A stretch of DNA of 52,752 nt from Octopus sinensis (lineage: Eukaryota). Of the stretch, positions 950 to 43,600 are shown one piece after another. The stretch is from contig NW_021833980.1 in assembly GCF_006345805.1 (NCBI RefSeq), forward strand, positions 1-52,752, read 5' to 3'. A program made the position numbers and the translations under genes. Positions within the stretch are counted from its first letter, which is position 1. Each line of letters opens with the position of its first letter. Below the pieces are notes generated by a model. That model did no database searches. It saw nothing but the letters and a program-made list of their open reading frames with translations, and was not told the DNA's origin.

Positions 950-1103
950 TTTCATCAATGAATTTCATGTGGCTTTTCTTAACTCCTAAGTTAAGCAATT
1001 CCTGGGAATTGTTCAAAACTGGGAGATATTGCGCCGCAGTTGACTTTCAGTCATTTCGCTAAATACTGTACAGTAAATAGCAAATATTTTATTTCTGTTT
1101 GAG
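950..1103 (-). CDS. SEA-like domain exon 3 ([27 protein letters not shown][x][23 protein letters not shown]); 154 nt, 1 nt short
   Basis: Strong ttttttatttcag acceptor and GTAAGT donor; two open segments joined by a -1 shift at ATCTCCCAGTTTTG. Confidence 0.75.
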
Positions 1104-17592: not shown

Positions 17593-19794
17593 ATATATTA
17601 TATATATATATGCGAGTGCTTGATAACCAATATTGGTTTGTTTACGTCCCCCGTAACTTAGTGATTCCTCAAAAGGTATCCGACTGATTAAGTGCCAGAT
17701 TTTAAAAATTCAGTACTAAGGATGATTTGTTCGAGTAAACGCTTGAAGGTAGTACTCCAGCATGGCCGCAATCTGATAACTGAAACAAGGAATAGTAAAA
17801 GTACATACTCCAGTAGCAGTGTAATGATAAAAAAGGTTTTCAAAACAATAAAATAATAATTATTGCAATAACATTGACCATCTTCAGACCAGTGCATAAC
17901 TATCAGAATCCTATTCAAAGTTCATAAAACAATGGTCACCTTTTGGTAGAAGATAAATACTGGGTACCTATAAATTGACTTTACAATTTGAACACTTCAG
18001 AAGACAATGAAGAACAAGGATAACTCATCAAACTTTATTGGAAATCTTTGGCAAACAAATATCAGAAGCATTAGAACACTTCGACGTGGATTTAATTGTT
18101 ACCAATTCTACGTCGCTAAAAGCCACACTTCTTTTTTGTCGGTTGAATTTTATAACGGGATTTTTACTAAAAGAGTCTTCCCCATGAAGACGTTCTTTTA
18201 AATTTGATTAATCTACACATTTCCTTTGGAAATAACTGAGATATTTTGATTCAAAGTCACTTTTTTGCCTTACGCTGCCATTTTTTACCTCGAAAACTTT
18301 GAAATAAATATTTTAAAGAATCAATTTCCAATTATTTTAGCTCGAAATGTAGCTTACATCTCGATCATCATTGCCAAAACGATGCAATTAATTAGGTTGA
18401 GAGCTGAATTACTAATTAAATCATGTAATAGGAGTGGAAGAGCTGCACTCTGTTGTTCACAGTCTCTAAGTGAAGTTCAGTAACAAGGACGGGGAGTCAA
18501 ATGTTGGGGTGCCAGGTGGGATAATCTATAGTCACCTTGATACTTTGGTGGATGGAGTTGGCTACTTGCTGGATGCTCTCCATTATGTTCCTCTCAGTTT
18601 CTACATTACCGTTACTAGAGCTGGTCTTAACTGTGATATTAATGCCATCTATATACCTACAGTAAATTAGAAGAGTTGTGGACTGTTTTGCCAAGGATTG
18701 CTTAGGTTTTCTGATCCACCAGGTCATGAAGAGGCCGGCAATATCTCCAGATACACCGACACAAATGGCCGCACCTTGAACTTACATGTATAGTTTCAAG
18801 CATTTGTCTTATGAAGGAAGGCCGAAGACGCACGACCTTTGTTCTCTCGAAAAACGACGACGCCGTGGTGATCTCATTCTTGGTCCCTACATCATAAGCG
18901 GAAAGTGTATCCTCTCGAAAGAGCTGTTCTTCACTCCTGCTCCAGAGCGTCGGCTGCAGGGTCACTCCGAAAAGCTCTATCTACGACGATTTCATCTCAA
19001 TCGAAGGAGAGGGGCTATCTCCGTCCGGGTTGCGGATCCGTGGAATAAGCTGCCGGACGAGATAGTGAAGATGCCGACGACCGCTCGGTTCAAAGTCTCT
19101 CTTGACCAGAAATAGCCTGAACTCTTTGTATGACCACCCTCCCTGTACATAACGCCCTGTCCCCCTACATGGCCTTGCTTTTGCTTTTTGAGACAAAAAA
19201 TTAAACTAAACTAAACTAGTGATACTTTAGTCTGTGGTTCTTCAAGGTGGTTCTTACGCTAGCTCCTACTGCCTGTGCAATCATTCCTTTCTCCTAATTG
19301 TTGTTCTCAGGGAGTTGGGTGGGTAGGGTCAAGCCACACCAGCGCTCAGTGGTGCATTTATTTACTGCTGAAGTGATGGTGGGTGGTCTAAGAATCTGTG
19401 ATCTGGCGGGGTAGAATATATAGTCTAAGAACGAGACACGGATCACGCGTGTTGACATCACAGAACTACACTTCACATTTCACAGACAATCTCATTACAT
19501 TATACTCCAGCAAAATCGATGTCAATAGATGGGTAGAGGGAAGCAAGTCCTTAGTGTCCACTACACAACATGTGAAGAACTTGGAGTGACCAAAAATACT
19601 CATTTTATTGAGGATGTCCTCAGTGCTAACAGAAGAAGAAGAAGAAGAAGAAGAAGAAGAAGAAAAAGAAGAAGAAGAAGAAGAAGAAGAAGAAAAAGAA
19701 GAAGAAGAAGAAGGAGAAGAAGAAGAAGAAGGAGAAGAAGAAGAAGAAGAAGAAAAAGAAGAAGGAGAATAAGGAGGAGAAGAAGAAGGAGAAG

Positions 19795-20592: not shown

Positions 20593-23500
20593 AAGAAGAA
20601 GAAGAAGAAGAAGAAGAAGAAGAAGAAGAAGAAGAAGAAGAAGAAGAACAAAAACTTCAACAACAATAACAAAAACATTATCTCGGTGGAATTGTGGATA
20701 AATAACCACACGGCACCACAGAATCAACAGAACAATGTGAAATAAAATAGTAGCTAAAACTTATATTAATAGTGCAGATACAGACATACATATGAACATA
20801 CACATATATTTTCAGGAATAACATTTTTATGCAGACAATTATCAACTGACAGTCATTGACATGTTCAGACTCAATCAAATAAATATAACACGAATATGAG
20901 AACTGAATATGATTTACAGTAATAGAGAGTGAGAAAACATGGAAATAAGGGGATATTAAATTTAAAGACATAGTATATTCCTCATGTATAAACGACAACA
21001 TTGAAAGAACTTACAATTCCTCTAAGCTGTGAAGGCCTTGAAACATCTCCTTTTCAATCCTTGAAATTTTATTGTTGCCAAGGTTTCTGAAGCAGGAAAC
21101 AATATTGGTTAGATTGACATAGTGTGAATTGCGATAACATATTCAATATTGTTCTTTATGAAAAGGGAAAAAATATAGGAAAATAACACAAGAAGAAGAG
21201 GAACAGGAAAGAGATTGAGAAGAAGAAGAAGCCAAAGAAGAAGGGGAGGTGGGGAAGGGGAAACGGAGAAGACAAGGAGGAAGTGGAGGGGGAGAAGAAG
21301 TAGAAGAAGGAGGAGTTGGAGGAGGAGGAACGAAGGAGAGGAAAATGGCTGAGGACGGAGTAGGACAAGGAGATGAAGGAGGGGTGGGGGAAATAGGAGG
21401 AGGAGCAGAGGGTAGAGTAGAAGAAAAAGATGTAAATTATTAAAAAGAGGAGGAGGGTGAGGAGACGAAGAAGAATAGGCAAAAGAGAAGAAAAAGAAGA
21501 AGAAGAGGAAAAAGAAGAAGAAGAAGAAAGCGATGAAGAAGGAGGAGGAAGAGGAGAAGGAGGGAGAGAATTACAAAAAAGAAGATGAGAAAAAAAAGAA
21601 GAAGGAGGAGAAGGAGGAGAAGTAGAAGAAAGTAGAAGTAGGAGTGGAAGAAAAAGAGGAAGAAGAAAGAGGATAAGGAGGGGGAGGGGAAAGTAAGAAT
21701 TACAAGAAGGAGGAGGAGGAGGAGAAGAAGAAGAAGAAGAAGAAGAAGAAGAAGCAGAAGAAGAAAAAGGAGGAGGAGTAGAGGTAGAAGAAGAGGAAGA
21801 AGAACAGGAAGCTGTAGAAGAAAGAGAAGACGGAAGAAGAGGCAAGAGGTGGAGGAGGAGGATGAAGGGGAAGAAGAAGTTAGAGAAAAGAAAAAAAGAA
21901 GAAGAAGGAGGAGGAGAATAACAAAATGAAACTATGAAGAAGAAAGAGCCGAAAGAGGAGAAGTAGATGAAGAAATAGAAAGTAGAATAAGAAGAAGTAG
22001 AAGAAAAAGAAAAATAAGGAGGAAGATGAGGAGGAGAAGTACAAGAAGAAGAAGAAGAAGAAGAAGAAGAAGAAGAAGAAGGAGAAGAAGAAGAAGAAGG
22101 AGAAGAAGAAGGAGGAGGAGGAGGAGGAGGAGGAGGAGGAGAAGAAGTAGAAGTAGAAGTAGAAAGAAAGAAAAAGAAGAAGAAAAGAAGACGAAGAAGA
22201 AGAAGAAGGAAAAGGAGGAGGATGAAGGGGAAGAAGAAGAGAAAGGAGGAGGATGAGAAGAATATGAAGAAGTAGAAAGTGTAGAAGAGGTAGAAGACGA
22301 AGAAAAAAAGAAGTGGTAGAAAGAGAAGAAGAAAAGGAAAATGATGGAGGAAGACGGGGAACAGAAGTAGAAGAAGAAGACGAAGAAGGAGAAGAAGAAG
22401 GAGAATAAGAATAAGAATTAGAAGAAGAAGAAGAAAAAGGAGCAAGAGAGGAGAGGGGTGGAGATGGACGAGAATTACAAGAAGAAAAAGGAGGGGTGGG
22501 GTGGTGAGAGGAGGAAGTGAATTACAAGAAGTAAATGTAGATGAAGAAGAAGAGAATAAAATTAGAAGAAGAAAAGAAAGAGGAGGAGGTGGAGGAGGAG
22601 AAGAAGAAGAATAGTTTAAAAGAAGGAGAAGAAGAAGAAATTGAAGAAGAGAAGAAAAAGAAGGAGGAGGATGATGAGCAGGAGGTGAGGCGGAGGAAGG
22701 AGAAGACGAAGAAGAAGAAGAAGAAGAAGAAGAAGAAGAAGAATAGTTTAAAAGAAGAAGGAGAAGAAGAAGAAAATGAAGAAGAAGAGAAGAAAGTAAG
22801 GATAGGAGGAGGCATGAGGTTGGCTAAGGAATAAGAAGAAGGAAGACTAAGACTAAGAATATAAGAAGAAGACGACGACGACGAAGAATAAGAATAATAA
22901 GAAGAAGAGTATAAGGAAGAATAAAGAATAGAAAAGAAGAAAAGAAGAAAAAGACGAAGACGAAGAAGAAGAAAGGAAGAAGAAGAAGGGGAGTAGAAGA
23001 AAAGAAGAAGAAGAAGAAGAAAGAAGTTATATTGAAAATCATGGTGTTGAAGACGAAACTGAAATTGTTCTTAAAATATCAGGAAATAATTCAAGGATAG
23101 ATCGATAAATTTTGGGCGAGAAGACATGGCTGAAAAATCATGGAATATACGGAATCAGAAATCAACATATTCAAATGCACTCATACGCATTCTTATATTC
23201 ATAGTATCAACGACGGAATGCGGTATGCACACTCACATCACACATATTCCCACTCACCCTTGTGGAAATATGGTGAGAGAGATTATTTCATATCGCTTCA
23301 TTGTCAGAAGAATATTAGAAAACACACGCTTACAAGAAATATATCAGCAGTTTAATTGTATCAGGCCAAATATTCCAGCTTACATGTACAGTAAGTATTT
23401 CAGGTTTACAGATAGAATGTATGTGACTATATTATTCGAATATATATTTTTCGCTTCCAATTTAGTTGCTCTATTACATAAATAACGTGAAGTGAATGAC

Positions 23501-26500
23501 AAAATTCGAAGTTGAATGATAATATCGAAACATGAAGGAGAATATTGAAATAGGAAATGGAGGAGGATGTAAAATATAAAATAAAGGAATAATATATTCA
23601 CATTTCACACAGAACTACACTTATATATGAACATACACAAATACTTCAGCTAAAAATATTTGATGCAAACATGTAAACTCACAAACGTTACCATTTCTAA
23701 TACAAATTCATATCAAAATCATTGAAATTGGGGAACAAAATGAGTTATTTAGATGCGAATTGAAACGAAGCAAGTACAAGAAAGGAACATTATATTTTTC
23801 CTATTATTTCACATTTTCTCTCAAATTCTCTCTCTTTCTTTCACATTGTCTCGCTCTCTCATATTCTTCTTTGTATATTCCTAAATCGTGTTGATTCTAC
23901 AAATTCGAATTGATTTTGTTTGGTGGAGTCTGAAATTTTATACATTTGTGAGCTTATATATCAGCATCAATTATTACATTCGGAAAATAATATCAAGAAA
24001 CTGAAGAACTTACAATTCTGTTAAATTGCAAAGCCCCGTGAATACACCTTCTTTGATGGTTGCAATGTTGTTGGAACCAATATTTCTATAGCAGTAAAGA
24101 AAGAGTAAAATAGATTATATGGAAAATATTTGTGATACGACATCAAACACTGTGACTTCAGAATGAAAGGAAGAAAAAGAAGAAATATAACGAAGAAGAA
24201 AAAGAAGAAGAAGGAGAAGAAGAAGAAAAGAAGAAGAAGAAAAGAGAAGGTAGATGAAGAGAAGAAGAAGAATAAAAAGAAGAATAAGGAGGAGGAAGAG
24301 GAGAAGAAGAAGAAGAAGAAGAAGTAGAAGAAAACGTAGAAGAAGAAAGGAGAAGATAAAGGAGTAGAAGACCTAGAAGAAGAAAAAGAAGAAGAGGAGG
24401 CGGAGGAGGCGGAGGAGGCGGAGGAGGCGGAGGAGGCGGAGGAGGAGGAGAGGTGGGGATGTTAGGAGGAGGACAAAGGAATGGATGACTGAGGAGGGGC
24501 AGCTGGGGATAGCAGCAGAAGGAGCAGGAAGAGCAGGAGGATGAGAATAAGAGGAAGAATTGGCAGAGAATGGAAAAGAGGGAGACCATTGAAGAAGCAG
24601 AAAGTACAGAGAAGAAAAAGAAGAAGAAGAAAAGAAGGCAAAGAAGAAGACAAAGAAGAAGTAGAACAGGAAGAAAAGTAACAAGAAGAAGAAGAAGATG
24701 AAGTAGAAGAAGAATAAGAGGAAGAAGAAGAAGAAGAAGACGACGAAGAAGAAGAGGAACATGCAGGAGATGAAGAAGGAAAGAAGAAGACGAAGAAGAT
24801 GAAGAAGAAAAATAGAAGAAGAGAAAGAAGAAATTAAAGAAAAAGGAGGATGAGTAGGACGAAGAGGGGAGGTTGAGGAGAAGAATTGCAATAAGAAGAA
24901 GAAGAAGAAAAAGGAGAAGGAGGTGGAGGAGGAGGGGGAATAGGAGAATTACAAGAAGAAGAACAAAACAACAACAATAACAAAAAAATTATCTCGGTGG
25001 AAGTGTGGATAAATAACCACACGGCACCACAGAATCAACAGAACAATGTGAAATAAAATAGTAGCTAAAACTTATATTAATAGTGCAGATACATACATAC
25101 ATATGAACATACACATATATATTTTCAGGAATAACATTTTTATGCAGACAATTATCAACTGACAGTCATTGACATGTTCAGACTCAATCAAATAAATATA
25201 AGACGAATATGAGAACTGAATATGATTTACAGTAATAGAGAGTGAGAAAACATGGAAATAAGGGGATATTAAATTTAAAGACATAGTATATTCCTCATGT
25301 ATAAACGACAACATTGAATGAACTTACAATATCTCTAAGTTGTGAAGGCCTTGAAACATCTCTTTTTCAATCCTTGAAATTTTATTGAAGGAAAGAGATC
25401 TGAAGCAGGAAACAATATTGGTTAGATTGACATAGTGTGAGTTGCGATAACATATTCAATATTGTTCTTTATGAAGAGGGACAAAATTATAGGAAAATAA
25501 TACAAGAAGAAGGGGAACAGGAAAGAGATTGAGGAGAAGAAGAAGACAAAGACGAAGGGGAGGAGCGGAAGGGGAAACGGAGAAGACGAGGAGGAAAAGG
25601 AGGGGGGGAGAAGAAATAGAAGTAGGAGTTCGAGGAGGAGGTGGGGAGGAGAAGAAAAAGCTTGAGGTCGGAAGAGGACAAGGAGATGCAGGAGGGGTGG
25701 GGGAAATAGGAGGAGGAGCAGAGGGTAGAGTAGAAGAAAAAGATGTAAATTATTAAAAAGAGGAGGAGGAGGATGAGGAGACGAAGAAGAATAGGTAAAA
25801 GAAAAAGAAGAAGAAGAGGAAAAAGAAAAAGAAGTAGAAGAAGGCGATGAAGAAGGAAGAGGAAGAGGAGAAGGAGGGAGAGAATTACAAAAAAGAAGAT
25901 GAGGATAAAAAGAACGAGAAGGAGAAGGAGGAGAAGTAGAAGAAAGTAGAAGTGGGTTAGGAAGAAAAACAAGAAGAAGAAGGAGAAGTAGAAGAAGAAT
26001 AAATGAAGTAGAAGAAAGAGAAGTTGAAGAAAAAGAAAAATAAATAGGAAGATGAGGAGGAGAAGTAGAAGAAGAACAACAACAACAATAACAAAAAATT
26101 TATCCTGGTGGAAGTGTGGATAAATAACCACACGGCACCACAGAATCAAGAGAACAATGTGTAAGAAAATAGTAGCTAAAACTTGTATTAATAGTGCAGA
26201 TACATACATACATATGAACATACACATATATATTTTCAGGAATAACATTTTGATGCAGACAATTATCAACTGACAGTCATTGACATGTTCAGACTCAATC
26301 AAATAAATATAAGACGAATATGAGAACTGAATATGATTTACAGTAATAGAGAGTGAGAAAACATGGAAATAAGGGGATATTAAATTTAAAGACATAGTAT
26401 ATTCCTCATGTATAAACGACAACATTGAAAGAACAATTTCTCTAAGTTGTGAAGGCCTTGAAACATCTCTTTTTCAATCCTTGAAATCTTATTGTTGCGA

Positions 26501-29500
26501 AGACCTCTGAAGCAGGAAACAATATTGGTTAGACTGACATAGTGTGAATTGCGATAACATATTCAATATTGTTCTTTATGAAAAAGAACAAAATTATAGG
26601 AAAATAATATGAGAGGAAGAGGAACAGGAAAGAGATTGAGGAGAAGAAGAAGCCAAAGAAGAAGGGGAGGAGGGGAAGGGGAAACGGGGAAGACAAGGAG
26701 GAAGTGGAGGGGGAAAAGAAGTAGAAGAAGGAGGAGTTGGAGGAGAAGGAACGAAGGGGAGGAAAAAGGCTGAGGACGGAGTAGAACAAGGAGATGCAGG
26801 AGGGGTGAGGGAAATAGGAGGAGGAGCAGAGGGTAGAGTAGAAGAAAAATATGTAAATTATTAAAAAGAGGAGGAGGGTGAGGAGACGAAGAAGAATAGG
26901 TAAAAGAGAAGAAAAAGGAAAAGAAGAGGAAAAAGAAGAAGCAGAAGAAGGCGATGAAGAAGGAGGAGGAAGAGGAGAAGGAGGGGGAGAATTACAAAAA
27001 AGAAGATGAGAAGAAGAAGAAAGAGGATGAGAAGGAGAAGTAGAAGAAAGTAGAAGAAAGAGGATAAGGAGGGGGAGGGGAAAGGAAGAATTACAAGATG
27101 AGGAGAAGAAGAAGAAGAAGCAGAAGAAGAAAAGGAGGAGTAGAGGTAGAAGAAGAAGAAGAAGAACAGGAAGCAGTAGAAGAAAGAGAAGAAGAAGGAA
27201 GAGGGGGCAAGAGGTGGAGGAGGAGGATGAAGGGGAAGAAGAAGTTAGAGAAAAAGAAAAAAAGAAGAAGGAGGAGGAGAATAACAAAATGAAAATATGA
27301 AGAAGAAAGAGCCGAAAGAGGAGAAGTAGACGAAGAAATAGAAAGTAGAATAAGAAGTAGAAGAAAATGAAATAGAAGAAAGAGAAGTTGAAGAAAAAGA
27401 AAAATAAGGAGGAAGATGAGGAGAAGTACAAGAAGAAGAAGAAGAAGAAGAAGAAGGAGGAGGAGGAGGAAGAGACGTAGAAGCAGAAGTAGAAAAAGAA
27501 GAAAAAGAAGAAGAAAAAAGAAGACGAATAAGAAGAAGGAAGAGGAGGAGGATGAAGGCGAAGAAGAAGAGAAAGGAGGAGGAGGAGAAGAATATGAAGA
27601 AGTATAAAGTGTAGAAGAAGTAGAAGACGAAAAAAAAAGAAGTGGTAGAAAGAGAAGAAGAAAAGGAAAAAGATGGAGGAAGACGGGGAACAGAAGTAGA
27701 AGAAGAAGACGAAGAAGGAGAAGAACAAGGAGAATAAGAATAAGAATTAGAAGAAGAAGAAGAAAAAGGAGCAAGAGAGGAGAGGGGTGGAGGTGGACGA
27801 GAATTACAAGAAGAAAAAGGAGGGGTGGGGTGGTGAGAGGAGGAAGTGAATTACAAGAAGTAAATGTAGATGAAGAAGAAGAGAATAAAATTAGAAGAAG
27901 AAAAGAAAGAGGAGGAGGTGGAGGAGGAGAAGAAGAAGAATAGTTTAAAAGAAGGAGAAGAAGAAGAAATTGAAGAAGAGAAGAAAAAGAAGGAGGAGGA
28001 TGATGAGCAGGAGGTGAGGCGGAGGAAGGAGAAGAAGACGAAGAAGAAGAAGAAGAAGAAAGAAGAAGAAGAAGAAGACGACGACGACGAAGAAGAAGTA
28101 AAAGAAGAAGGAAGATAAAAGAAAAGAAGAAAAGAAGAAGAAGAAGAAGAAGAAAGAAGAAGAAGAAGAAGAAGAAGATACATTAAAAATCATTGTCTTC
28201 AAGACGACCCTTAAAATGTTTTCATAATATCATGAAATAATTCAAGGATAGAATGAAAAATTTTGGGCGAGAAGACATGGCTGAAAAATCATGGAATATA
28301 CGGAATCAGAAATCAACATATTCAAATGCACTCATACGCATTCTTATATTCACAGTATCAACGACGGAATGCGCTCTGCACACTCACATCACACATATTC
28401 CCACTCACCCTTGCGGAAATATGGTGAGAGAGATTATTTATTTAATATCGCTTCATTGTCACAAGAATATTAGAAAACACACGCTTACAAGAAATATATC
28501 AGCAGTTTAATTGTATCAAGCCAAGTATTCCAGCTTATAAGTACAGTAAGTATTTCAGGTTTACAGATAGATGTATGTGACTATATTATTCGAATATATA
28601 TTTTCCGCTTCCAATTCAGTTGCTCTATTACATAAATAACGTGAAGTGAATGACAAAATTCGAAGTTGAATGATAATATCGAAACACGAAGGAGAATATT
28701 GAAATAAGAAATGGAGGAGGATGTAAAATATAAAATAAAGGAATAATATAGTCACATTTCACACAGAACTACACTTATATATGAACATACACATATACTT
28801 CAGCTAAAAATGTAACCTCACAAACGTTACCATTTCTAATACAAATTCATATCAAAACCTTTGAAATTTGGGGAACAAAAAAGAGTTAATGAGATGCGAA
28901 TTGAAACAAAGCAACTACAAGAAAGGAACATTATATTTTTCCTATTATTTCACTTTCTCTCTCAAATTCTCTCTCTTTCTTTCACATTGTCTCGCTCTCT
29001 CATATTCTCTTTGTATCTTCCTAAATCGTGTTCATTCTTCAAATTCGAATTGATTTTGTTTGGTGCAGTCTGAAATATTATATATTTGTGAGCTTATATA
29101 TCAGCATCATTACTTTCGGAAAATAATATCAAGAAATTGAACAAACTTACAATGTCTTTAAATTCGAAAGGCCCGTGAATAAACCTTCTTTGATGGTTGA
29201 AATGTTGTTCCATCTCAGATCTCTATAGCAGTAAAGAAAGAGTAAAATAGATTATATGGAAAATATATGTGATACGACACCAAACACTGTGATTTCAGAA
29301 TGAAAGGAAGAAAAAGAAGAAAGATAACGAAGAAAAAGAAGAAGTAGACGGAGGAGGAGGAGAAGAAGTAGAAGAAGAAGATGAGTAGAAGAAGAAAGTA
29401 GAAGAAGGAGAATTGGGCAGGAGGTGGAGGGGGCGGAAGAGAAGGTGTAGTGGGGAGGTTAGGAGGAGGACCAAGGAATGGATGACTGAGGAGCGGCAGC

Positions 29501-31280
29501 TGGGGGTAGAAGCAGAAGGAGCAGGAAGAGCATGAGAATGAGAATAAGAGGAAGAATTGGCAGAGAATGGAAAAGAGGGAGACAAGTGACGGAGCAGAAA
29601 GTACAGAGAAGAAAAAGAAGAAGAAAAAAAGAAGAAGAAGAAGAAGAAGAAGAAGAAGAAGAAAAATAGAAGAAGAATACAAATAAGTAGAAAAATAAGA
29701 AGAAAAAAGAAGGCAAAGAAGAAGACAAAAAAGAAGTAGAACACGAAGAAAAGTAACAAGAAGAAGAAGTAGATGAAGTAGAAGAAGAAGAAGACGACGA
29801 AGAAGAAGAGGAACATGTAGGAGATGAAGAGGGAAAGAAGAAGACGAAGAAGATGAAAAAAAAGAAAAATAGAAGAAGAGAAAGAAGAAATTGAAGAAAG
29901 AGTAGGATGAGTAGGACGAAGAGGGGAGGTTGAGGAGGAGAATTGCAATAAGAAGAAGAAAAAGGAGGAGAAGGAGGTGGAGCAGGAGGGAGAATAGGAG
30001 AATTACAAGAAGAAGAACAAAACAACAACAACAACAATAAAAAAAATTTATTTCGGTGGAAGTGTGGATAAATAACCACACGGCACCACAGAATCAAGAG
30101 AACAATGTGTAAGAAAATAGTAGCTAAAACTTATATTAATAGTGCAGATACATACATACATATGAACATACACATATATATTTGCAGGAATTACATTTTT
30201 ATGCAGACAATTATCAACTGACAGTCATTGACATGTTCAGACTCAATCAAATAAATATAAGACGAATATGAGAACTGAATATGATTTACAGTAATAGAGA
30301 GTGAGAAAACATGGAAATAAGGGGATATTAAATTTAAAGACATAGTATATTCCTCATGTATAAACGACAACATTGAATGAACTTACAATTTCTCTAAGTT
30401 GTGAAGGCCTTGAAACATCTCCTTTTCAATCCTTGAAATTTTATTGCTGTCAAGAGATCTGAAGCAGGAAACAATATTGCTTAGATTGACATAGTGTGAA
30501 TTGCGATAACATATTCAATATTGTTCTTTATGAAAAGGGACAAAATTATAGGAAAATAATACAAGAGGAACAGGAAAGAGATTGAGGAGAAGAAGAAGAC
30601 GAAGAAGGGGATGAGGGGAAGCGGAAAAGAAGAAGACTAGGAGGAAAAGGAGGGGGAGTAGAAGTAGAAGAAGGAAGAGTTGGAGGAGGAGGAGGGGAGA
30701 AGAAGAAGAAGGAGGAGGACTGAAGAGGACAAGGAGATGAAGGAGAGAAAGGAACATAGGAGGAGGATGGGCAGAGGAAAAGAAGACAAAGAAGAAGAGG
30801 AGGAGGGGAAGGGGAAAATAAGAAGACAAGGAGGAAGAGGAGTTGGGAGAAGAAGTAGAAGGAGGAGGAGGAGAAGGATGAGTAGGAGGAGTAGGCGGAG
30901 ATGAGGAGAAGTAGGTTGAGGACGGGGGAGGACAATGAGATGCAGGAGGGGGAATAGGAGGAGGAGGAGGAATGGGAGGAGTAGAAGAAGAAGATGTAGA
31001 AGATTAAAAAGAGGAGGAAGAAAAAGAAGATATAGAAGAATGAAGGGGATGGAGAGGAGAAGAATAATAAGAAGAAGAAGCAGGAAAAAGAAGAGGAAGA
31101 AGAAGTAGAAGAAGAAGAAGAAGAAGAAGAAAAAGAAGAAGGAGAAGGAAATGGAGGAAAAGAGATGGATGACGAGGAAGGGGAAGGAGAAGAAGGAGAA
31201 GAAGAAGAAGAACAACAACAACAACAAGAATAAGAAGAAGAAGTAGGAGGAAGAGGAGGAGAATAACAAAATGAAGAAGA

Positions 31281-31311
<31 letters not shown>

Positions 31312-34300
31312 GAGGAGGAGGAGGAAAAGTAGAAGAAGAAAAGAACAAAAAGAAGAAGAAGGAGAAGAAGAAGACGACGACGACGAAGAAGAAGTAGAAG
31401 AAGAAGAAGGAGAAGAAGAAGAAGAAGAAGTAAAAGAAGAAGAAGAAGAAGAAGAAGAAGAAGAAGAAGATACGTTGAAAATCATGGTGTTCAAGACGAA
31501 ACTGAAAATGTTGTCATAATATCAGGAAATAATTCAAGGATAGAGCGGTAAATTTTGGGCGAGAAGACATGGCTGAAAAATCAGGGAATATACGGAATCA
31601 GAAATCAACATATTCAAACGCACTCATTCGCATTCTTATAGTCATAGTATCAACGACGGAATGCGCTATGCACACTTACATCACTCATAATCCCACTCAC
31701 ACTTGTGGAAATATGGTGAGAGAGATTATTTATTTCATATCGCTTCATTGTCAGAAGAATATTAGAAAACACACGCTTACAAGAAATATATCAGCAGTTT
31801 AATTGTATCAGGCCAAATATTCCAGCTTACAAGTACAGAAAGTATTTCAGGTTTACAGATAGAATGTATGTGACTATATTATTCGAATATATATTTTCCG
31901 CTTCCACTTCAGTTACATAAATAACGTGAAGTGAATGACAAAATTCGAAGTTGAATGATAATATCGAAACACGAAGGAGAATATTGAAATAAGAAATGGA
32001 GGAGGATGTAAAATATAAAATAAAGGAATAATATAGTCACATTTCACACAGAACTACACTTATATATGAACATACACATATACTTCAGCTAAAAGTATTT
32101 GATGCAAACATGTAAACTCACAAACGTTACCATTTCTAATACAAATTCATATCAAAACCTTTGAAATTTGGGGAACAAAAATGAGTTATTGAGATGCAAA
32201 TTGAAACAAAGCAACTACAATAAAGGAACATTGTATTTTTCCTATTATTTCACTTTCTCTCTCAAATTCTCTCTCTTTCTTTCACATTGTCTCGCTCTCT
32301 CATATTCTTTTTGTATCTTCCTAAATCGTATTCATTCTACAAATTCGAATTGATTTTGTTTGGTGCAGTCTGAAAGTTTATACATTTGTGAGCTTATATG
32401 TCAGCATCAATTATAACTTTCGGAAAATAGTATCAAGAAATTAAACGAACTTACAATTCTTTTAAATTTGAAAGCCCCGTGAATGTACCTTCTTTGATGG
32501 TTGAAATGTTGTTCTCGTACAGATCTCTATAGCAGTAAAGAAAGAGTAAAATAGATTATATGGAAAATATTTGTGATTCGATATCAAACACTGTGACTTC
32601 AGAATGAAAGGAAGAAAAAGAAGAAAGATAACGAAGAAGAAGAAGAAGAAGAAGAAGATTAAGACAGGAAAAGAAGAAGAAGAAGAAAGGAAAAGAAGAA
32701 GAAAAAGAAAGAAAAAGGAGAAGAAGAAGCAGTAGTAGAAGAAAAAGAAAAGTAGAAGAAGGGGAATTAGGGACGAGGTGGAGGATGTGGGGGTGGAGCA
32801 GAGGTGGGGAGGTTAGGAGGAGGACAAAGGAAGGGATGCCTGTTCAGGGGGCCGCTGAGGGTAGCAGCTGAAGGAGCAGGAAGAGCTGGAGACTGAGAAT
32901 AAGAGGGAGAATTGGCAGAGAATGGAAAAGAGGGAGACCAGTGACGGAGCATAAAGTACAGAGAAGAAAAAGAAGAAGAAGACAAAGAAGAAGAAGAAGA
33001 ACAAAATTAGAAGAGGAAGAAGGAGGAGGAGAAGAAGTAGAAGAAGAAGCAGAAGAAGAAGAAAACAAAGAAAATTAAGAAGAAGAAGAAAAAAGAAGGC
33101 AAAGAAGAAGTAGAACACGAAGAAAAGTAACAAGAAGAAGAATAAGTAGAAGAAGAAGAAGAGGAAGAAGAAGAAGACAAAGAAAAGGAAGAAGAAGAAG
33201 AAGAGGAAGAAGAAGAAGACGACGAAGAAAAGGAACATGAAGGAGATGGAGAAGGAAAGAAGAAGACGAAGAAGATGAAGAAGAAGAAAAATAGAAGAAG
33301 AGGAAAAAGAAATTGAAGAAAAAGGAGGATGAGTAGGACGAAGAGGGCATGTTGAGGAGGAGAATTGCAATAAGAAGAAGAAAATGAGGAGAAGGAGGTG
33401 GAGGAGGAGGGGGAATAGGAGAATTACAAGAAGAAGAACAAAACAACAACAACAACAACAAAAATATTATCTCGGTGGAAGTGTGGATAAATAACCACAC
33501 GGCACCACAGAATCAAGAGAACAATGTGTAAGAAAATAGTAGCTAAAACTTATATTAATAGTGCAGATACAGACATACATATGAACATACACATATATAT
33601 TTTCAGGAATAACATTTTTATGCAGACAATTATCAACTGACAGTCATTGACATGTTCAGACTCAATCAAATAAATATAAGACGAATATGAGAACTGAATA
33701 TGATTTACAGTAATAGAGAGTGAGAAAACATGGAAATAAGGGGATATTAAATTTAAAGACATAGTATATTCCTCATGTATAAACGACAACATTGAAAGAA
33801 CTTACAATCTCTCTAAGTTGTGAAGGCCTTGAAACATTTCTTTTTCAATCCTTGAAATATAATTGTAGGAAAGAGATCTGAAACAGGAAACAATATTGGT
33901 TAGATTAACATAGTGTGAATTGCGATAACATATTCAATATTGTTCTTTATGAAAAGGGACAAAATTATAGGAAAATAATACGAGAGGAAGGGGAACAGGA
34001 AAGAGATTGAGGAGAAGAAGAAGAAGAAGGAGAGTAGGGGAAGGGGAAAGAAGAAGTCAAGGAGGAAGAGAAGGGGGGAGAAGAAGTAGAAGAAGGAGGA
34101 GTTGGAGGAGGAGGAGGGGAGGTGAATAAGGATGAGGACAGGGAAGGATAAGGAGATGCAGGAGGGGGAGGAAAATAGGAGGAGGTGCAGAGGGTAGAGT
34201 ATAAGAAGATATAGAAGATTAAAAAGTGGAGGAAGAAAAAGAACAAGTAGAAGGAAGAGGAGGGTGAAAAGAAGAAAAAGAAGAAGAAGAAAAAGAAGAA

Positions 34301-37300
34301 GTAAAACGAGAAGAAGAAGCGGAAAATGAAGAAGAAGTAGAAGCAGGAAAAAAGGAGAAGAAGGAAGAAGAGAAAAATAGGTGGAGGCGGAGGTGGAAGA
34401 GGAAGGGGAAGAAGAAGAAGACAGATGAGAAGGAGGAGGAGGAGGAGGAGGAGGAAGGGGAAGTAGAAGAAAAAGAAGGAGGAGAAGGAGGAGGAGGAAG
34501 AGTAGTAGAAGAAGAAGAATAAGATGAAGAAGAAGAAGATGACACTTTGAATATCATGGTATTCAAGATGAATCTGGAAATGTTCTCAAGATATCAGGAA
34601 ATAATTCAAGGATAGATCGAGAAATTTTGGGCGAGAAGACATGGCTGAAAACTCAGGGAATATACGAAATCAGAAATCAACATATTCAAATGCACTCATA
34701 CGCATTTTTATTTTCATAGTATCAACAACGGAATGCGGTATGCACACTCACATCACACATAATCCCACTCACACTTGTGGAAATATGGTGAGAGAGATTA
34801 TTTATTTCATATCGCTTCATTGTCACAAGAATATTAGAAAACACACGCTTACAAGAAATATATCAGCAGTTTAATTGTATCAGGCCAAATATTCCAGCTT
34901 ACAAGTACAGAAAGTATTTCAGGTTTACAGATAGAATGTATGTGACTATATTATTCGAATATATATTTTCCGCTTCCACTTCAGTTACATAAATAACGTG
35001 AAGTGAATGACAAAATTCGAAGTTGAATGATAATATCGAAACACGAAGGAGAATATTGAAATAAGAAATGGAGGAGGATGTAAAATATAAAATAAAGGAA
35101 TAATATAGTCACATTTCACACAGAACTACACTTATATATGAACATACACATATACTTCAGCTAAATGTATTTGATGCAAACATGTAAACTCACAAACGTT
35201 ACCATTTCTAATACAAATTCATATCAAAATCATTGGAATTTGGGGGAAAAATGAGTTATTGAGATGCGAATTGAAACAAAGCAACTACAATAAAGGAACA
35301 TTATATTTTTCCTATTATTTCACTTTCTCCCCCAAATTCTCTCTCTTTCTTTCACATTGTCTCGCTTTCTCCTATTCTCTTTGTATCTTCTTAAATCTTG
35401 TTCATTCTACAAATTTGAATTGATTTTGTTTAGTTCAGTCTGAAATTTTATACATTTGTGAGCTTATATATCAGCATCAATTAATACTTTCGGATAATAG
35501 TATCAAGAAATTAAACGAACTTACACTGTTTTTAAATTGGAAAGCCCCGTGAATACACCTTCTTTGATGGTTGAAATGTTGTTCCCGAAAAGATATCTAT
35601 AGCAGTAAAGAAAGAGTAAAATAGATTATATGGAAAATATTTGTGATACGACATCAAACACTGTGACATCTGAATGAAAGGAAGAAAAAGAAGAAAGATA
35701 ACGAAGAAGAAAAGGAAGAAGAAGGAGGAGGAGGAGGCGAAGAGGAAGAAAAGTAGAAGAAGAAGAATTAGTAGAAGAAGAAAGGAGAAGAGGTAGTAGA
35801 AGAAAAAGAAGCGAAAGAAGGAATACCTGGAAAAAGGAGGAGGAGGATGATAAAAGGGAAGAAGAAGTAGAAGAAAAAGTAAAAGAAGAAGAAGAAGGGG
35901 ATGGGAGGAAAAGAATAACAAGAAGAAGAAGATAAATATAAGAAAGACGAGGAGGAGGAGGAGGAGAAGTAGGTGAAGAAGTAGAAATAAGAAGAAGAAG
36001 AAGGAGAAGAAGAACAACAACAAGTCGAAATAGAAGGAGGATGAGGAGGGGGAGGGGAAGAAGAAATATTGCAAGAAGAAGGAAGGAAAGAACAGGAAGA
36101 AGAAGATGTAGAAGTAGTAGAAGCAAGAAAAAGAAGAAAGATAACGAAGAAGAAAAGGAAGAAGAAGGAGGAGGAGGAGGCGAAGAGGAAGAAAAGTAGA
36201 AGAAGAAGAATTAGTAGAAGAAGAAAGGAGAAGAGGTAGTAGAAGAAAAAGAAGCGAAAGAAGGAATACCTGGAAAAAGGAGGAGGAGGATGATAAAAGG
36301 GAAGAAGTAGAAGAAAAAGTAAAAGAAGAAGAAGGGGATGGGAGGAAAAGAATAACAAGAAGAAGAAGATAAATATAAGAAAGACGAGGAGGAGGAGGAG
36401 GAGAAGTAGATGAAGAAGTAGAAATAAGAAGAAGAAGAAGGAGAAGAAGAACAACAACAAGTCGAAATAGAAGGAGGATGAGGAGGGGGAGGGGAAGAAG
36501 AAATATTGCAAGAAGAAGAAGGAAGGAAAGAACAGGAAGAAGAAGATGTAGAAGTAGTAGAAGCAAGAAAAAGAAGAAGATGAAGGAGGTGGAGGAGAAG
36601 GAGATAGAGAATAACAAAAACAGAAGTGAAGAAGAAGAAGGAGGAGGAGGAGGAGTAGAAGAAGAAGTAGAAAGAAGAAGAGGAAGAAAAAAAGAAAAAG
36701 ACAAAGAAGAAGAAGAAGGAAGGGGAGGAAAAAGGAGGAGGAGGAGTGTGAAGGAGGAGAATAAGTAGGAGAACATGAAAAAGAAGAAGAAGATGAAGGA
36801 GGAGGAGGTTGAGAATAACAAAAAGAAGAATATAAGAAGAAGAAAGAGGAGTAGGAGGAGAAGTAGATGAAGAAGTAGAAAGTAGTGGTAGAAGAAGACA
36901 TAGAAGAAGAAGAAAAAAGAAGTAGAAGAATGAGAAGAAGAAATGAAAAAGAAGAAGGAAGGAACAGAAGAAGAAGAATTAGAAGAAGAAGCAGAAGAAG
37001 AAGAAAATGAAGCAGGAGAGGAGGGGAGGAGGAGAATAACAAGAAGAAAAAGGAGGAGGCGCGGAGAGGATTGGGTAGAAAAAAAGAAGAGGAAAAAAAG
37101 AAGTAGAAGAAGGAAGGGGAAAAAGGAGGAGGAAGAAGATGAAAGGGAAAAAGTAGGGGTAGAAGAAAAAGAAGAAGAAGAAGAACAAGGAGGAGGAGGA
37201 GGAGGAGGAGTAGATGAAGAAGTTGAAAGTAGAAGAGGAAGAAGTGGAAGAAGAAGAAAAAAGGAGAAGCGAGAGAAGAAGAAGAAGAAAAAGAAGAAGA

Positions 37301-37580
37301 AGAAGGAGGAGAAGAAGGTGCAGCAGGAGGAGAGGAACAGAAGGAAGAAGAAGAAAAAGAAGAAGAAGAAGAAGAAGAAGAAGAAGAAAAAAGGAGAAGC
37401 GAGAGAAGAAGAAGCAGGAGGAGGAGGAAGAGAAGGAAGAAGAAGAAAAAGAAGAAGAAGAAGAAGGAAAATAAGAAGAAGAAGAAGGAAAAGAAGAAGA
37501 AGAAGGCAGAATACGAAATGACAAAAAGATGAAGAAGAAGGCGGAGAAGGAGAATAGAATAAGAAAAAGAACAAAAAGAA

Positions 37581-37612
<32 letters not shown>

Positions 37613-40600
37613 AAAATATAAAGCGGGAGAAGAAGAAGAAGAAGAAGAACAACAACAACAACAAAAAGAAGAAAAAGAGGAAGAAGAAGAAGAAGAAGTG
37701 GAAAAAGAAAAAGATAAAGAGGGAGAAGAAGAAGAACAACAACAAAAAGAAGAAGAAGAAGAAGAAGAAGAAGAAGAAAAGATAAAGAGGGAGAAGAAGA
37801 AGAAGAAGAAAAAGAAGAAGAAGAAGAAGAAGAAGAAGAAGAAGAAGAAGATGACAATTTAAAAATGATGGTGTTCATGATGAAACTGAAAATGTTCTCA
37901 TAATATCAGGAAATAATTCAAGGATAGAGCGATAAATTTTGGGCGAGAAGACATGGCTGAAAAATCAGGGAATATACGGAATCAGAAATCAACATATTCA
38001 AATGCACTCATACGCAATCTTATATTCATAGTATCAACGACGGAATGCGGTATGCACACTTACATCACACATATTCCCACTCACCTTTGTGGAAACATGG
38101 TGAGAGAGATTATTTATTTCATATCGCTTCATTGTCACAAGAATATTAGAAAACACACGCTTACAAGAAATATATCAGCAGTTTAATTTATCAGGCCAAA
38201 TATTCCAGCTTACAAGTACAGTAAGTATTTCAGGTTTACAGATAGAATGTATGTGACTATATTATTCGAATATATATTTTCCGCTTCCACTTCAGTTACA
38301 TAAATAACGTGAAGTGAATGACAAAATTCGAAGTTGAATGATAATATCGAAACACGAAGGAGAATATTGAAATAAGAAATGGAGGAGGATGTAAAATATA
38401 AAATAAAGGAATAATATAGTCACATTTCACACAGAACTACACTTATATATGAACATACACATATACTTCAGGTAAAAATATTTGATGCAAACATGTAAAC
38501 TCACAAACGTTACCATTTCTAATACAAATTCATATCAAAATCATTGAAATTTGGGAACAAAAATGAGTTATTGAGATGCGAATTGAAACAAAGCAACTAC
38601 AATAAAGGAACATTATATTTTTCCTATTATTTCACTTTCTCTCTTAAATTCTCTCTCTTTTTTCACATTGTCTCGCTCTCTCCTATTCTCTTTGTATCTT
38701 CCTAAATCGTATTCATTTTACAAATTTGAATTGATTTTGTTCGGTGTAGTCTGAAATATTATACATTTGTGAGCTTATATATCAGCATCAATTATTACGT
38801 TCGGAAAATAATATCAAGAAACTGAACGAACTTACAATTCTTTTAAATGTGAAAGCCCCGTGAATGCTCCTTCTTTGATGGTTGCAATGTTGTTGTTCCA
38901 CAGTTCTCTATAGCAGTAAAGAAAGAGTAAATTAGATTATATGGAAAATATATGTGATACGACATCAAACACAGTGACATCTGAATGAAAGGAAGAAAAA
39001 GAAGAAAGATAACGAAGAAGAAGAAGAAGAAGAAGAAGAAGGGGAAGAAGAAGAAGAAGAAGGAGAAGAACAAGAAGAAGAAGAAGAAGAAGAAGAAGAG
39101 GAAGTAAAAGAAGACGAAGACAAAGAAAAGGAAGAAGAAGAAGAAGAAGAGGAAATAGAAGAAGACGACAAAGAAGACGGAACATGAAGGAGATGAAGAA
39201 GGAAAGAAGAAGAGGAAGTATAAAAAGAAGAAAAAGAAGAAGAGAAAGAAGAAATTGAAGAAAAAGGAGGATGAGTAGGACGAAGAGGGGAGGTTGAGGA
39301 GGAGAATTGCAATAAGAAGAAGAAAATTAGGAGAAGGAGGTGGACGAGGAGGGGGAATAGGAGAATTACAAGAAGAAGAACAAAAACAACAACAACAACA
39401 ACAAAAATATTATCTCGGTGGAAGTGTGGATAAATAACCACACGGAACCTCAGAATCAACAGAACAATGTGTAAGAAAATAGTAGCTAAAACTTATATTA
39501 ATAGTGCAGATACAGACATACATATGAACATACACATATATATTTTCAGGAATAACATTTTTATGCAGACAATTATCAACTGACAGTCATTGACATTTCA
39601 GACTCAATCAAATAAATATAAGACGAATATGAGAACTGAATATGATTTACAGTAATAGAGAGTGAGAAAACATGGAAATAAGGGGATATTAAATTTAAAG
39701 ACATAGTATATTCCTCATGTATAAACGACAACATTGAAAGAACTTACAATTTCTCTAAGCTGTGAAGGCCTTGAAACATCTCTTTTTCAATCCTTGAAAT
39801 TTTATTGTAGCCAAGATCTCTGAAGCAGGAAACAATATTGGTTAGATTAACATAGTGTGAATTGCGATAACATATTCAATATTGTTCTTTATGGAAGGAG
39901 ACAAAATTATAGGAAAATATACAGAAGAAGAGGAACGAAAGAGATTAAGGAGAAGAAGAAGAAGAAGAAGAAGAAGAAGAAGAAGAAGAAGAAAGAGAGG
40001 AGGGGAGGGAAAAGAAGAAGTCAAGGAGGAAGAGAAGGGGGGAGAAGAAGTAGAAGAAGGAGGAGTTGGAGGAGGAGGGGAGGTGAAGAAGGATGAGGAC
40101 AGGGAAGGAAAGGAGATGCAGGAGGGGGAGGAAGGGAGGAAAATAGGAGGAGGTGCAGAGGATAGAGTATAAGAAGATATAGAAGATTAAAAAGTGGAGG
40201 AAGAATAAGATGAAGTAGAAGGGAGAAGAAAGGGGAGGAGGAGAAGAAGAGAAGAGGAAGAAGAGAGGAGAAGAAGAAGAAGGAGAGAAGAGAAAGAAGA
40301 AGTAAAAGGAGAAGAAGAGCGGAAGAAAATGAAGAAGAAGAAGAAGCATGAAAAAAGAAGAGAGAAAAAGAAAAAGAAGGAGAAGAAGGAAGAAGAGGAA
40401 AATAGGTGGAGGCGGAGGAGTAGGAGGAAGCGGAAGGAGAAGAAGAGGACAAAGGAGAAGGAGGAGGAAGAGAAGTAGGAGAAGAAGAAGAAGAAGAAGA
40501 AGAAGAAGAAGAAGAAGAAGAAGAAGAAGAAGAAGAAAAGAAGAAGAAAAGAAGATGACACTTTGAATATCATGGTGTTGAAGACGAAACTGAAATTGTT

Positions 40601-43600
40601 CTTAAAATATCAGGAAATAATTCAAGGATAGATCGATAAATTTTGGGCGAGAAGACATGGCTGAAAAATCAGGGAATATACGGAATCAGAAATCAACATA
40701 TTCAAATGCACTCATACGCATTCTGATATTCATAGTATCAACGACGGAATGCGGTATGAACACTCACATCACACATATTCCCAATCACACTTGTGGAAAT
40801 ATGGTGAGAGAGATTATTTATTTCATATCGCTTCATTGTCACAAAAATATTAGAAAACACACGCTTACAAGAAATATATCAGCAGTTTAATTGTATCAGG
40901 CCAAATATTCCAGCTTACATGTACAGTAAGTATTTCAGGTTTACAGATAGAATGTATGTGACTATATTATTCGAATATATATTTCCCGCTTCCAATTCAG
41001 TTGCTCTATTACATAAATAACATGAAGTGAATGATAAAATTCGAAGTTGAATGATAATATCGAAACACGAAGGAGAATATTGAAATAAGAAATGGAGGAG
41101 GATGCAAAATATAAATAAAGGAATAATATAGTCACATTTCACACAGAACTACACTTATATATGAACATACACATATACTTCAGGTAAAAATATTTGATGC
41201 AAACATGTAAACTCACAAACGTTACCATTTCTAATACAAATTCATATCAAAATCATTGAAATTTGGGTAACAAAACTGAGTTATTGAGATGCGAATTGAA
41301 ACAAAGCAACTACAATAAAGGAACATTATATTTTTCCTATTATTTCACTTTCTCCCCCAAATTCTCTCTCTTTCTTTCACATTGTCTCGCTCTCTCCTAT
41401 TCTCTTTGTATCTTCCTAAATCTTGTTCATTCTACAAATTTGAATTGATTTTGTTTGGTTCAGTCTGAAATTTTATACATTTGTGGGCTTATATATCAGC
41501 ATCAATTAATACTTTTGGATAATAGTATCAAGAAATTAAACGAACTTACACTTTTTTTTAAATTGGAAAGCCCCGTGAATACACCTTCTTTGATGGTTGA
41601 AATGTTGTTCTCGGAAAGATATCTATAGCAGTAAAGAAAGAGTAAAATAGATTATATGGAAAATATTTGTGATACGACATCAAACACTGTGACTTAAGAA
41701 TGAAGGAAGAAAGAAAAAGAGAAAGAAGATAACGAAGAAGAAGAAGAAGAAGAAGAGACATGGAAAATGAGGTGTTCAAGATGAAAACCGAAAAAGGATT
41801 GAAGAGAGAAGAAGAAGTAGAAGAAGAAGAAGGAGAAGAAGAAGAAGAAGAAGAAGGAGAAGAAGAAGAGAAGAAGAAGAAGAGAAGAGAAAAGAAACAG
41901 AAGAAGAAAAAAAATAAAAAGGCGTAAAGATGAAGATTACAAGAAAAGAAGAAAAAAGAAGAATACGAAGAAGAAAAAGAAGAAGAAGAAGAGAGACGAA
42001 GAATAATAATAAGAAGAATAAGAAGACCAAGAGGAGAAGAAGAAGAAGAAGAAGAAGAATAGAAGAAGAAGAAAAGAGGAGGAGGAGAGAAGAAGAAGAA
42101 GAAGAAGAAGGAAGAAGAAGAAGAAGAAGAAGACGGAGAAGAAGAGAGAGAAGAAGAAGAGAAGACGAAGAAGAAGAAGAAGAACAAGAGGAAGAAGGCA
42201 GAAGATGCAGGAGGAGAAGAATATCTTAATGTGGCAGCAGTTTCATGTTTATTTCTTACTTGACTTGCACAACCTCGAGTATCCGCTTCGCCTCTCTATG
42301 TACCAACACACACATCCACACACATACACGCACATATACGCACATACACACATATATGCTCAGAAATATACACACATATGTATATCTACCTCTGGGTGCG
42401 AGTATGTGTGCGAACCTCGTCCCGGTAGTGGTGTTCTTTTTACCTGTCGATATAGTTTATTATCGAATCTAAAGGTGTTGTCTTCTAGTTCCCGGCGTGT
42501 GTCTTTGGAAATGTGTTTTGAAGCGTTCGTCCATCCGTCCGCTATGTTTTTCTACCCAGTGTTTGATTGCTTCCAGGCCCAAAGTGTGATGTATTTGTAC
42601 AAAGATTAGTCAAATCTTTTAAGTATAGTACGTTCTGGGACAGTGGGTGGAATGTGTTTGATGAAATCCATATCGTCTCGGGTATAGCTGGGCATTAATG
42701 GGCACAACGGTTTGAGGAGTATATCCAAAAGATGGCTCAGTTGTTGTGTTGGGGCTCAGGGTCCAGCAACTGTTGGTCTCAATTTGATGTCAGTAGGTCT
42801 TAGTATTTTTATATGCTGATCCTTGCATTTTGGAGCATTCGCAGATCTTGGGTGATCCATAGAAATTACTCTCTTTCATTACAGAGCTGCATAAATAATC
42901 TTTCTCATTATCTGTGAACGAACGTTGGTATTCATTTATCTGACTTTTGGGTGTATTCATTATTACTTTTTCCGGGTGTCTTGGTTCTTCCTTGTAGCAG
43001 GATTGGTCTGTTTCCAATATTTTATCTTTATAGTAGTCTTGGTCCGTGACTGCTTTCACCCTTCCCTAATCGGTTTCTTTTAGGATGATTGAATTGTCAT
43101 TCTTCAGTTTGTAAGGCTTTCTTTTCTTCTTCAGGAAGGTTCTGTTCGCTTTACGGATATTTTATTATATATGATATAAAACGGATTTAAGTCACCACGT
43201 AAAGTATGAATGAAAAACACATATGCATGTAAAATATGAGAAAAGAATGGATGTTCAAAATATTTGTGATTTGAATTAGATTTACAAAGCCTTCGTTGCA
43301 ACATCAGTTTTCAGTGGAAGATATTTTTATCATCTCAGAAGTCAGCTTTATTTATAAATATCTTGTTTCTGTCCAATGAGCATTCCATTTGTTATTACAC
43401 TTTGCTGTCAAAAGTAATTTACCTTTGCAAAAGTAAACTCCTTTCCTTTGCTTAGTTGATGCATAAAAGTTCTTCATAAAAATAAATAAACCCCCAAAAC
43501 TTCAAGACTGAAATAATAGACTAGGAAGGAAAGCATAACAGAAATGGAAAGGGATTTATTAATAGAATTGGTGATGGTAGAGTGGGGAAACCCTTATTTA

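Follow-up and report, generated by a model that had tools for sequence, protein, structure and literature searches.

The window analysed here (52,752 nt) is one entire unplaced contig of Octopus sinensis, NW_021833980.1, and belongs to a genome of 2.72 Gb. It carries an array of twelve leucine-rich repeat (LRR) exons. The reading that we favour, with rather more confidence than doubt, is that these exons encode exchangeable LRR modules, of 24 residues each, within a single octopus gene, which likely derives from an adhesion G protein-coupled receptor (GPCR) and lacks its GAIN and seven-transmembrane (7TM) part. The product is a predicted secreted binder whose concave face is likely under diversifying selection.

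All twelve exons lie on the minus strand in phase 2 and belong to two types, A and B, with six exons each in the window sequence. An earlier note on this DNA had placed twelve LRR exons here, and their positions, lengths and motifs are borne out, as are the E/I/K/K/R/K column of type A and the six different residues at codon 3 of type B. Eleven exons are 72 nt long and one, cassette B6 (at 41622), has 73 nt. The order along the transcript is B A B B A B A B A A B A, with 0.9–3.3 kb between neighbouring cassettes. Every cassette has an AG acceptor and starts one base ahead of its first full codon; the donor is GTAAG in 11 of the 12 and GTTCTT at A3 (26506). Both borders of a cassette cut a Leu (or Val) codon after the second base and, therefore, any cassette can be added or skipped with the frame unchanged. 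The array forms the middle of a single gene, between the first exon and the LRRCT exon:

41550–41622, minus strand: LRR cassette B6 (YLSEN), 73 nt; extra A in three of five sister contigs, in-frame 72 nt in the other two
39748–39819, minus strand: LRR cassette A6 (DLGYN)
38836–38907, minus strand: LRR cassette B5 (ELWNN); the donor is TT in sister contig C9761
35525–35596, minus strand: LRR cassette B4 (YLFGN)
33806–33877, minus strand: LRR cassette A5 (SLSYN); replaced relative to two sister contigs
32455–32526, minus strand: LRR cassette B3 (DLYEN)
30387–30458, minus strand: LRR cassette A4 (SLDSN)
29151–29222, minus strand: LRR cassette B2 (DLRWN)
26435–26506, minus strand: LRR cassette A3 (GLRNN); donor weak here and in C9761, GTAAG in C12785
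25328–25399, minus strand: LRR cassette A2 (SLSFN)
24014–24085, minus strand: LRR cassette B1 (NIGSN); used by none of 13 RefSeq isoforms
21015–21086, minus strand: LRR cassette A1 (NLGNN); used by none of 13 RefSeq isoforms
19631–42221, no strand: duplicated intron blocks around A and B exons, with GAA-rich spacers between them

Each cassette is embedded in an intron block present in six copies; GAA runs dominate the output of the repeat search and the blocks are still visible in it. These duplicated blocks around the A and B exons are the units of cassette copying. The GAA-rich spacers at 19631–42221 are strand-biased and confined to the array (GC skew up to 0.88, AT skew up to 0.79); they could favour unequal exchange.

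According to the LRR rule LxxLxLxxNxL, the concave-face positions of a cassette are codons 1, 3, 4, 6, 22 and 23, and these six codons were chosen before counting. They hold 55 of the 63 amino-acid-different pairs in type A (exact p 3.5e-4) and 58 of the 93 in type B (exact p 2.6e-3). The pairwise base difference between window copies at codons 1, 3 and 4 amounts to 0.50 in A and 0.59 in B, as against 0.006–0.042 (A) and 0.031–0.084 (B) in the intron flanks, so that the variable codons diverge more than the adjacent introns, as had been expected. The nonsynonymous difference (pN) of the framework among window copies is 0.013 in A and 0.073 in B. A wider set comprised 25 A and 45 B cassettes out of 16 contigs or clusters. 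Its entropy peaks at codons 1, 3, 4 and 23, with Leu2 and Asn5 fixed or almost fixed, and ranges from 0–0.3 bits at the Leu and Asn codons to 1.4–3.3 bits at the variable ones. The concentration of change on the predicted binding face is firm. It agrees with the claim of the earlier note as far as the six preset codons are concerned, with the restriction that B codon 14, which lies off the concave face, varies too. The six A codons with amino-acid changes were also counted correctly (1, 3, 4, 6, 20 and 23); instead of three purely synonymous A sites there are two (codons 12 and 13), plus one synonymous change in codon 6. The enrichment of W/Y/F at B codon 3 holds in the window and shrinks to 9 of 45 cassettes in the wider set.

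The codon tests were run without the redundant contigs C9761, C12785, C8846, C6381 and C11691, save that the 72-nt B6 of C8846 was substituted for the 73-nt copy of the window and the variant A5 of C9761 was retained. All 14 cassettes from the C29 3.2-Mb array, 19 exons of other types and cassettes with stops or no GT were excluded as well, and the removal of 2 of 25 A and 5 of 45 B cassettes with long flank branches left 23 A and 40 B. With a shared synonymous rate, omega (the ratio of nonsynonymous to synonymous rates) at concave versus other codons is 5.2 versus 0.08 in window A (p 8.5e-4), 4.5 versus 0.49 in window B (p 2.6e-4), 6.6 versus 0.64 in the 23 A cassettes (p 2e-8) and 3.2 versus 0.41 in the 40 B cassettes (p 8e-12). 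Codons 6 and 22 are without significance, and B codon 14 is significant. Several points weaken the case for selection. When the concave codons are given a synonymous rate of their own, p becomes 0.066, 0.09, 0.004 and 0.033 for the four sets in the same order; when multi-base changes are allowed, it becomes 0.11, 0.14, 0.054 and 0.23 (0.007 for all 25 A cassettes). Besides, omega tests can be inflated by recombination, and the codon model is the author's own script. Omega above 1 at the concave-face codons is thus model-dependent: the values of 3–7 obtained in standard models are mostly not significant with multi-base changes.

These results bear on an explanation which we regard as improbable, namely that there is no adaptive diversification and gene conversion evens out introns and framework while it shuffles old short patches in a decaying gene, the selection signal being false. 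Consistent with it are the exon synonymous rates, which are 3–6 times the flank rate in the window, the multi-base term, which is significant in the wide sets and makes omega not significant, the frameshifts shared between contigs, and 9-nt patches across codons 2–4 that recur in up to 5 loci with differing neighbours. However, conversion alone leaves unexplained why change falls on codons 1, 3, 4 and 23 and spares the intervening Leu and Asn in two exon types, and the paralogs on C25 and C29 have intact reading frames in two exons disrupted here (see below). The synonymous rate at concave codons is only ~1.3–2.1 times that at framework codons and the replacement rate 8–60 times, which gives no support to the "targeted diversification" considered in the earlier note. 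It is likely that the concave face evolves under diversifying selection.

The locus is also found on four other contigs (C9761, C12785, C8846 and C4525). C9761 is 99.3% and 98.9% identical to the window over 46 kb. The two differ by 53 substitutions in 24.5 kb of non-repetitive sequence, of which 9 fall inside the 72-nt exon A5 and change 4 residues; C12785 carries the C9761 variant, and the replacement tract extends over about 33809–33986. A cluster of 13 substitutions relative to C9761 (and C12785) at window positions 43477–43782 probably represents a second conversion tract outside the exons. Since it sits in intron 1, conversion appears to be general and not aimed at cassettes, which detracts from the picture of a specially diversified array. 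The first exon on C25 is identical and its unique flanks are 95–97% identical, but its cassette set is different and non-colinear; the arrays of C25, C29 and C5 are unlike despite first exons of 94–100% identity. The search for paralogous arrays suggested in the earlier note thus had a positive outcome: the cassettes form part of a young octopus multigene family whose paralogs have differing cassette sets. It is likely that recombination feeds cassette diversity, because the paralog sets differ and one cassette has been replaced between near-identical copies. A pure assembly artefact was rejected, as the same cassettes occur on five contigs and the same design is found on chromosome-scale contigs and in O. 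vulgaris proteins. An older array on C29 (L046–L048, G000:C29:3204001-3234000) has 17 listed cassettes of at least 4 exon types, with block duplications inside and several frameshifted copies.

The genes of variable lymphocyte receptors (VLRs) are completed in somatic cells, where a deaminase-dependent process copies in flanking cassettes that are not spliced, and the proteins end in a stalk and a glycosylphosphatidylinositol (GPI) anchor. The octopus cassettes are, in contrast, germline intragenic exons with splice sites, and the C-terminus is probably of adhesion-GPCR origin, with a hydrophilic tail devoid of a hydrophobic segment in place of stalk and GPI anchor. The likeness to lamprey and hagfish VLRs lies in the 24-residue LRR solenoid with LRRNT and LRRCT caps, the variable concave face and a possible secreted form (PMC13428168). 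We consider it very improbable that blood cells use the cassettes as donors for somatic copying into an expressed gene: the modules and their variable face would fit, as would the mosaic versions of the locus on five contigs, but each cassette has its own acceptor, 11 of 12 have a GTAAG donor, they are positioned between the first and LRRCT exons, and the 134 cassette matches are without exception in sense orientation. Alleles, recent duplicates or assembly products can account for the mosaic contigs. Identity with the VLRs was rejected, the cassettes being spliceable exons inside a gene, and nothing indicates the somatic assembly implied by "VLR-like".

Public annotation lists 13 RefSeq isoforms for the locus, which is named slit-like in O. 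sinensis. They use 9 of the 12 cassettes whole, 5–8 in each isoform, and open with six different first cassettes or hybrids, so the term "hidden" used for these exons in the earlier note does not apply to the public annotation. B1, A1 and the cap exon appear in none of the 13. Hybrid B exons in 5 of the 13 isoforms weigh against the favoured reading; they are likely a mapping artefact, since mis-mapping of isoforms is to be expected with near-identical exons. On the public annotation, cassette skipping is plausible.

The gene spans from 45709 to beyond the window start, with its 3' part off the contig, and its domain order is leader/LRRNT, cassettes, cap LRR, LRRCT, Cys-rich LU-like and SEA-like. 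The exons outside the array are:

45499–45709, minus strand: first exon with start codon at 45689, hydrophobic leader, LRRNT cap and phase-2 end
16951–17020, minus strand: cap LRR exon, 70 nt versus 72 in paralogs; out of frame here and in two sister contigs
13615–13772, minus strand: exon for the final LRR strand and LRRCT; entered in phase 2 and left in phase 1
8846–8937, minus strand: Cys-rich LU-like domain, exon 1
6703–6885, minus strand: Cys-rich LU-like domain, exon 2 (LU2), with CC..LCN end; 1 nt short of paralogs in 3 of 3 contigs
5633–5714, minus strand: SEA-like exon 1 (SEA1), 1 nt short in 3 of 3 contigs; labelled from position and pattern, unconfirmed
4590–4642, minus strand: SEA-like exon 2
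950–1103, minus strand: SEA-like exon 3; lacks 1 nt here and in C12785 but is complete in C9761

The first exon has 60 genomic matches, 6 of them at 100%, and its LRRNT cap is recognized by Pfam in the family protein P0005 (E 0.0048). The signal peptide was judged by eye, the leader being below the hydropathy cut-off used. The LU-like domain contains 12 Cys over its two exons and gives a weak match to UPAR_LY6_2 (Pfam E 0.14–0.56); the SEA-like domain has ~97 residues across three exons. Both labels are weak, because the AlphaFold prediction of the C-terminal half failed (pLDDT <50 from residue 171 in P0010 and from residue 302 in P0041) and the Atlas searches bearing on these labels gave no usable match. 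In the paralogs on C29 (G000:C29:1825963-1844654) and C6381 (P0001) the two-exon LU-like domain is present in at least 3 tandem copies.

It counts against a functional product of this copy that 3 of 3 contigs share deletions of a single base in the cap exon (two), LU2 and SEA1; further indels are common to differing pairs of contigs. Gapped bases between sister contigs number 0–4 per 2.4–2.6 kb, and assembly errors do exist among these contigs. We lean somewhat towards real lesions in the cap, LU2 and SEA1 exons, because the same deletions are found in several contigs, and this copy may accordingly be truncated or a pseudogene. If the lesions are real, the product may stop a few residues past the LU-like domain, like the public models, or the copy may be decaying. 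The cap and LU2 exons are in frame in the paralogs on C25 and C29.

The origin of the gene is suggested by its 3' part. The search with the LU2 exon matched 31 proteins, 30 of them named from Octopus species and 13 of them the isoforms of this locus; the names bear out the probable cephalopod of the earlier note. The LU exon is 70–98% identical to octopus proteins carrying 7tm_2, and several relatives have GPS and 7tm_2 (Pfam). ADGRG2/G6 are closest to P0027 among PDB structures, and HRM in P0074 has a Pfam E of 2e-4, below the cut-off. The ectodomain (HRM and its neighbours) is homologous to adhesion GPCR members, as follows from the LU exon identity, HRM and the tree. C9761 extends 24 kb past the equivalent of the window and contains HRM, another SEA-like domain and then a stop exon (tail) that is short, hydrophilic and similar to the last exon of 7TM relatives. 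Between HRM and the stop exon, no GAIN, GPS or 7TM match was found by tblastn with four GAIN-7TM queries (18.5 kb searched). Thus the octopus gene keeps the ectodomain homology and, on C9761, is devoid of the two features that define an adhesion GPCR (GAIN/GPS and secretin-type 7TM), so the word "receptor" in the earlier note is not supported. The tail exon has 23 genomic matches, and 21 of 80 proteins of two species terminate in this tail. Among 11 tail-ending proteins scanned, none has a hydrophobic segment after the N-terminus, as compared with 8 in each of 3 controls. A tree of 22 rows groups seven tail-ending rows with three partial ones in a single clade (99/98) amid 7TM-bearing rows. 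We conclude that the gene likely arose from an adhesion GPCR via loss of the GAIN-7TM part, and its product is predicted to be secreted.

Three observations pull the other way: C9761 ends 4.3 kb beyond the stop exon; a single clade of all eight tail-ending proteins is rejected (p-AU 7e-5), the eighth being placed elsewhere; and in P0013 a 98% identical LU domain is joined to 7TM. They would suit the array being the ectodomain of a membrane adhesion GPCR, with the tail exon as an alternative end and the GAIN-7TM exons further downstream. We find this improbable. In P0013 and P0012, GPS and membrane segments do follow an N-terminal part that is near-identical, C9761 leaves just that 4.3 kb past the tail, and one tail-ending model stands among the 7TM rows of the tree. 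However, the tail resembles the last exon of 7TM relatives and is expected after the 7TM part, not before it, and all nine LU-to-tail intervals compared are without a 7TM match between them (best 150 of 174 7TM candidates scored). Loss of the GAIN-7TM part therefore remains the preferred reading.

Two gene models and one paralog are unusual in this part. P0084 (O. bimaculoides, named toll-like receptor 5) has many LRRs, LU-like, SEA-like, HRM and second SEA-like domains in a model without 7TM and belongs to another tree branch; it is possibly a separate anchor loss. P0060 (O. vulgaris) joins the leader and LRR cassettes of this family to ankyrin repeats, which may be a model artefact. In the C25 paralog (G000:C25:23292412-23341152) the 5' and 3' halves face each other, with the LU2, SEA-like, HRM and tail parts of the 3' half on the opposite strand; an inversion could account for this, as could a second gene or an error in scaffolding.

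Ritschard et al. 2019 (PMC6408891) describe an octopus-specific group 3 of adhesion GPCRs in which 5 of 22 members have LRRs and positive selection shows at the level of branches, with no selected sites. The homologs of the present gene are likewise ADGRG6-like proteins from octopus that carry GPS and 7tm_2, and from these shared traits we tentatively assign the gene family to that group. The genes in that study were, in contrast, collected via 7TM, and its accessible text makes no mention of cassette exons, splicing or membrane-less members.

The AlphaFold model of isoform P0041 is a solenoid with pLDDT of about 90–98, in which strands are placed at codons 23 and 1 and at the Leu of the junction. 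From LRR geometry, codons 3 and 4 should lie on the same side, next after codon 1. A point unfavourable to an immune role is that the closest folds are those of LRR proteins from neural and Wnt contexts (Nogo receptor, LGR4, NGL, LRRTM). It is possible, though unlikely, that the same secreted diversified protein recognizes a self or conspecific ligand, in cell identity (nerve cord, suckers), allorecognition, or gamete or chemical signalling. Along with these fold matches, the expression of group 3 adhesion GPCRs in the axial nerve cord, suckers and skin of O. bimaculoides (PMC6408891) would be in keeping with such a role. However, the fold matches are generic to 24-residue LRR proteins (23–35% identity), expression is high in gill and skin of C. 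minor (PMC6408891), and candidate immune receptors show this combination of rapid concave-face replacement and turnover of repeats (PMC3341825). Ligands of microbial or parasite origin, met at exposed tissues, seem to us the most likely.

Slit and Toll-like receptor were rejected as identities, since no EGF-LamG or TIR follows the LRRs (Pfam, 6 + 7 family proteins). In the same proteins no rhodopsin-type 7TM was found and the 7TM of relatives is of secretin type, so a glycoprotein-hormone or GRL101-type LGR was rejected as well. The design of the array is best compared with that of the Ectocarpus (brown-algal) ROCO LRR-GTPases, where one 72-nt exon encodes each 24-residue LRR and exons are shuffled between recent duplicates (PMC3341825), and of Tetrahymena LRR genes, whose tandem equal-length exons with phase-2 introns are copied with their introns and scrambled by ectopic recombination (PMC6564038). 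The octopus array shares an equal-length, same-phase exon per LRR, with repeat number and order differing between recent duplicates. For ROCO genes, selection on concave-face residues (PMC3341825) and alternative splicing (PMC11378527) are described; the octopus counterparts are the model-dependent omega and the annotation-based isoforms. ROCO proteins are, however, intracellular ROC-COR GTPases with inverted spare exons, whereas the octopus protein is an extracellular animal protein and probably stems from an adhesion GPCR, its two exon types alternate and none of its cassettes is inverted; a ROC-COR domain had no Pfam match in 6 family proteins. In Tetrahymena the exons are of 90 bp, the repeats of 30 residues and the genes number thousands (PMC6564038), as compared with 72 bp and tens of genes in octopus.

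The following mechanism is proposed. Unequal crossing-over and gene conversion via the near-identical intron blocks would cause gain, loss and overwriting of cassettes in the germ line; new binding-face residues would be retained by selection; and frame-preserving exon skipping would give more combinations per gene. The outcome would be a fast-changing, germline-encoded recognition repertoire, of which this copy is possibly partly broken. A bolder version appears doubtful to us: octopuses would have an antibody-like repertoire of secreted LRR proteins that goes back to an adhesion GPCR, with tens of genes of up to about 17 hypervariable cassettes each, cell-specific exon skipping and a role in immune or self/non-self recognition.

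A 2026 review names fibrinogen-related proteins (FREPs) for molluscs and for cephalopods only the white body in its accessible text (PMC13428168), and the accessible part of PMC9795677 has nothing on LRR or on this octopus LRR cassette family. A literature search, which most subscription papers and supplements lay outside, brought up no account of cassette exons, selection at individual sites or members without a membrane domain in the octopus family. No diversified recognition molecule is known from cephalopods, and these LRR proteins, predicted to be secreted and belonging to a young family with a fast-changing binding face, offer a concrete candidate. If the proposal is true, an adhesion GPCR has been turned into a soluble binder, and the exon-array design of brown algae and ciliates has evolved anew in an animal.

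Elsewhere in the window, open reading frame fragments at 3478–4421, 18497–19115, 48809–49231 and 50877–51420 presumably resemble remnants of retrotransposons and DNA transposons.

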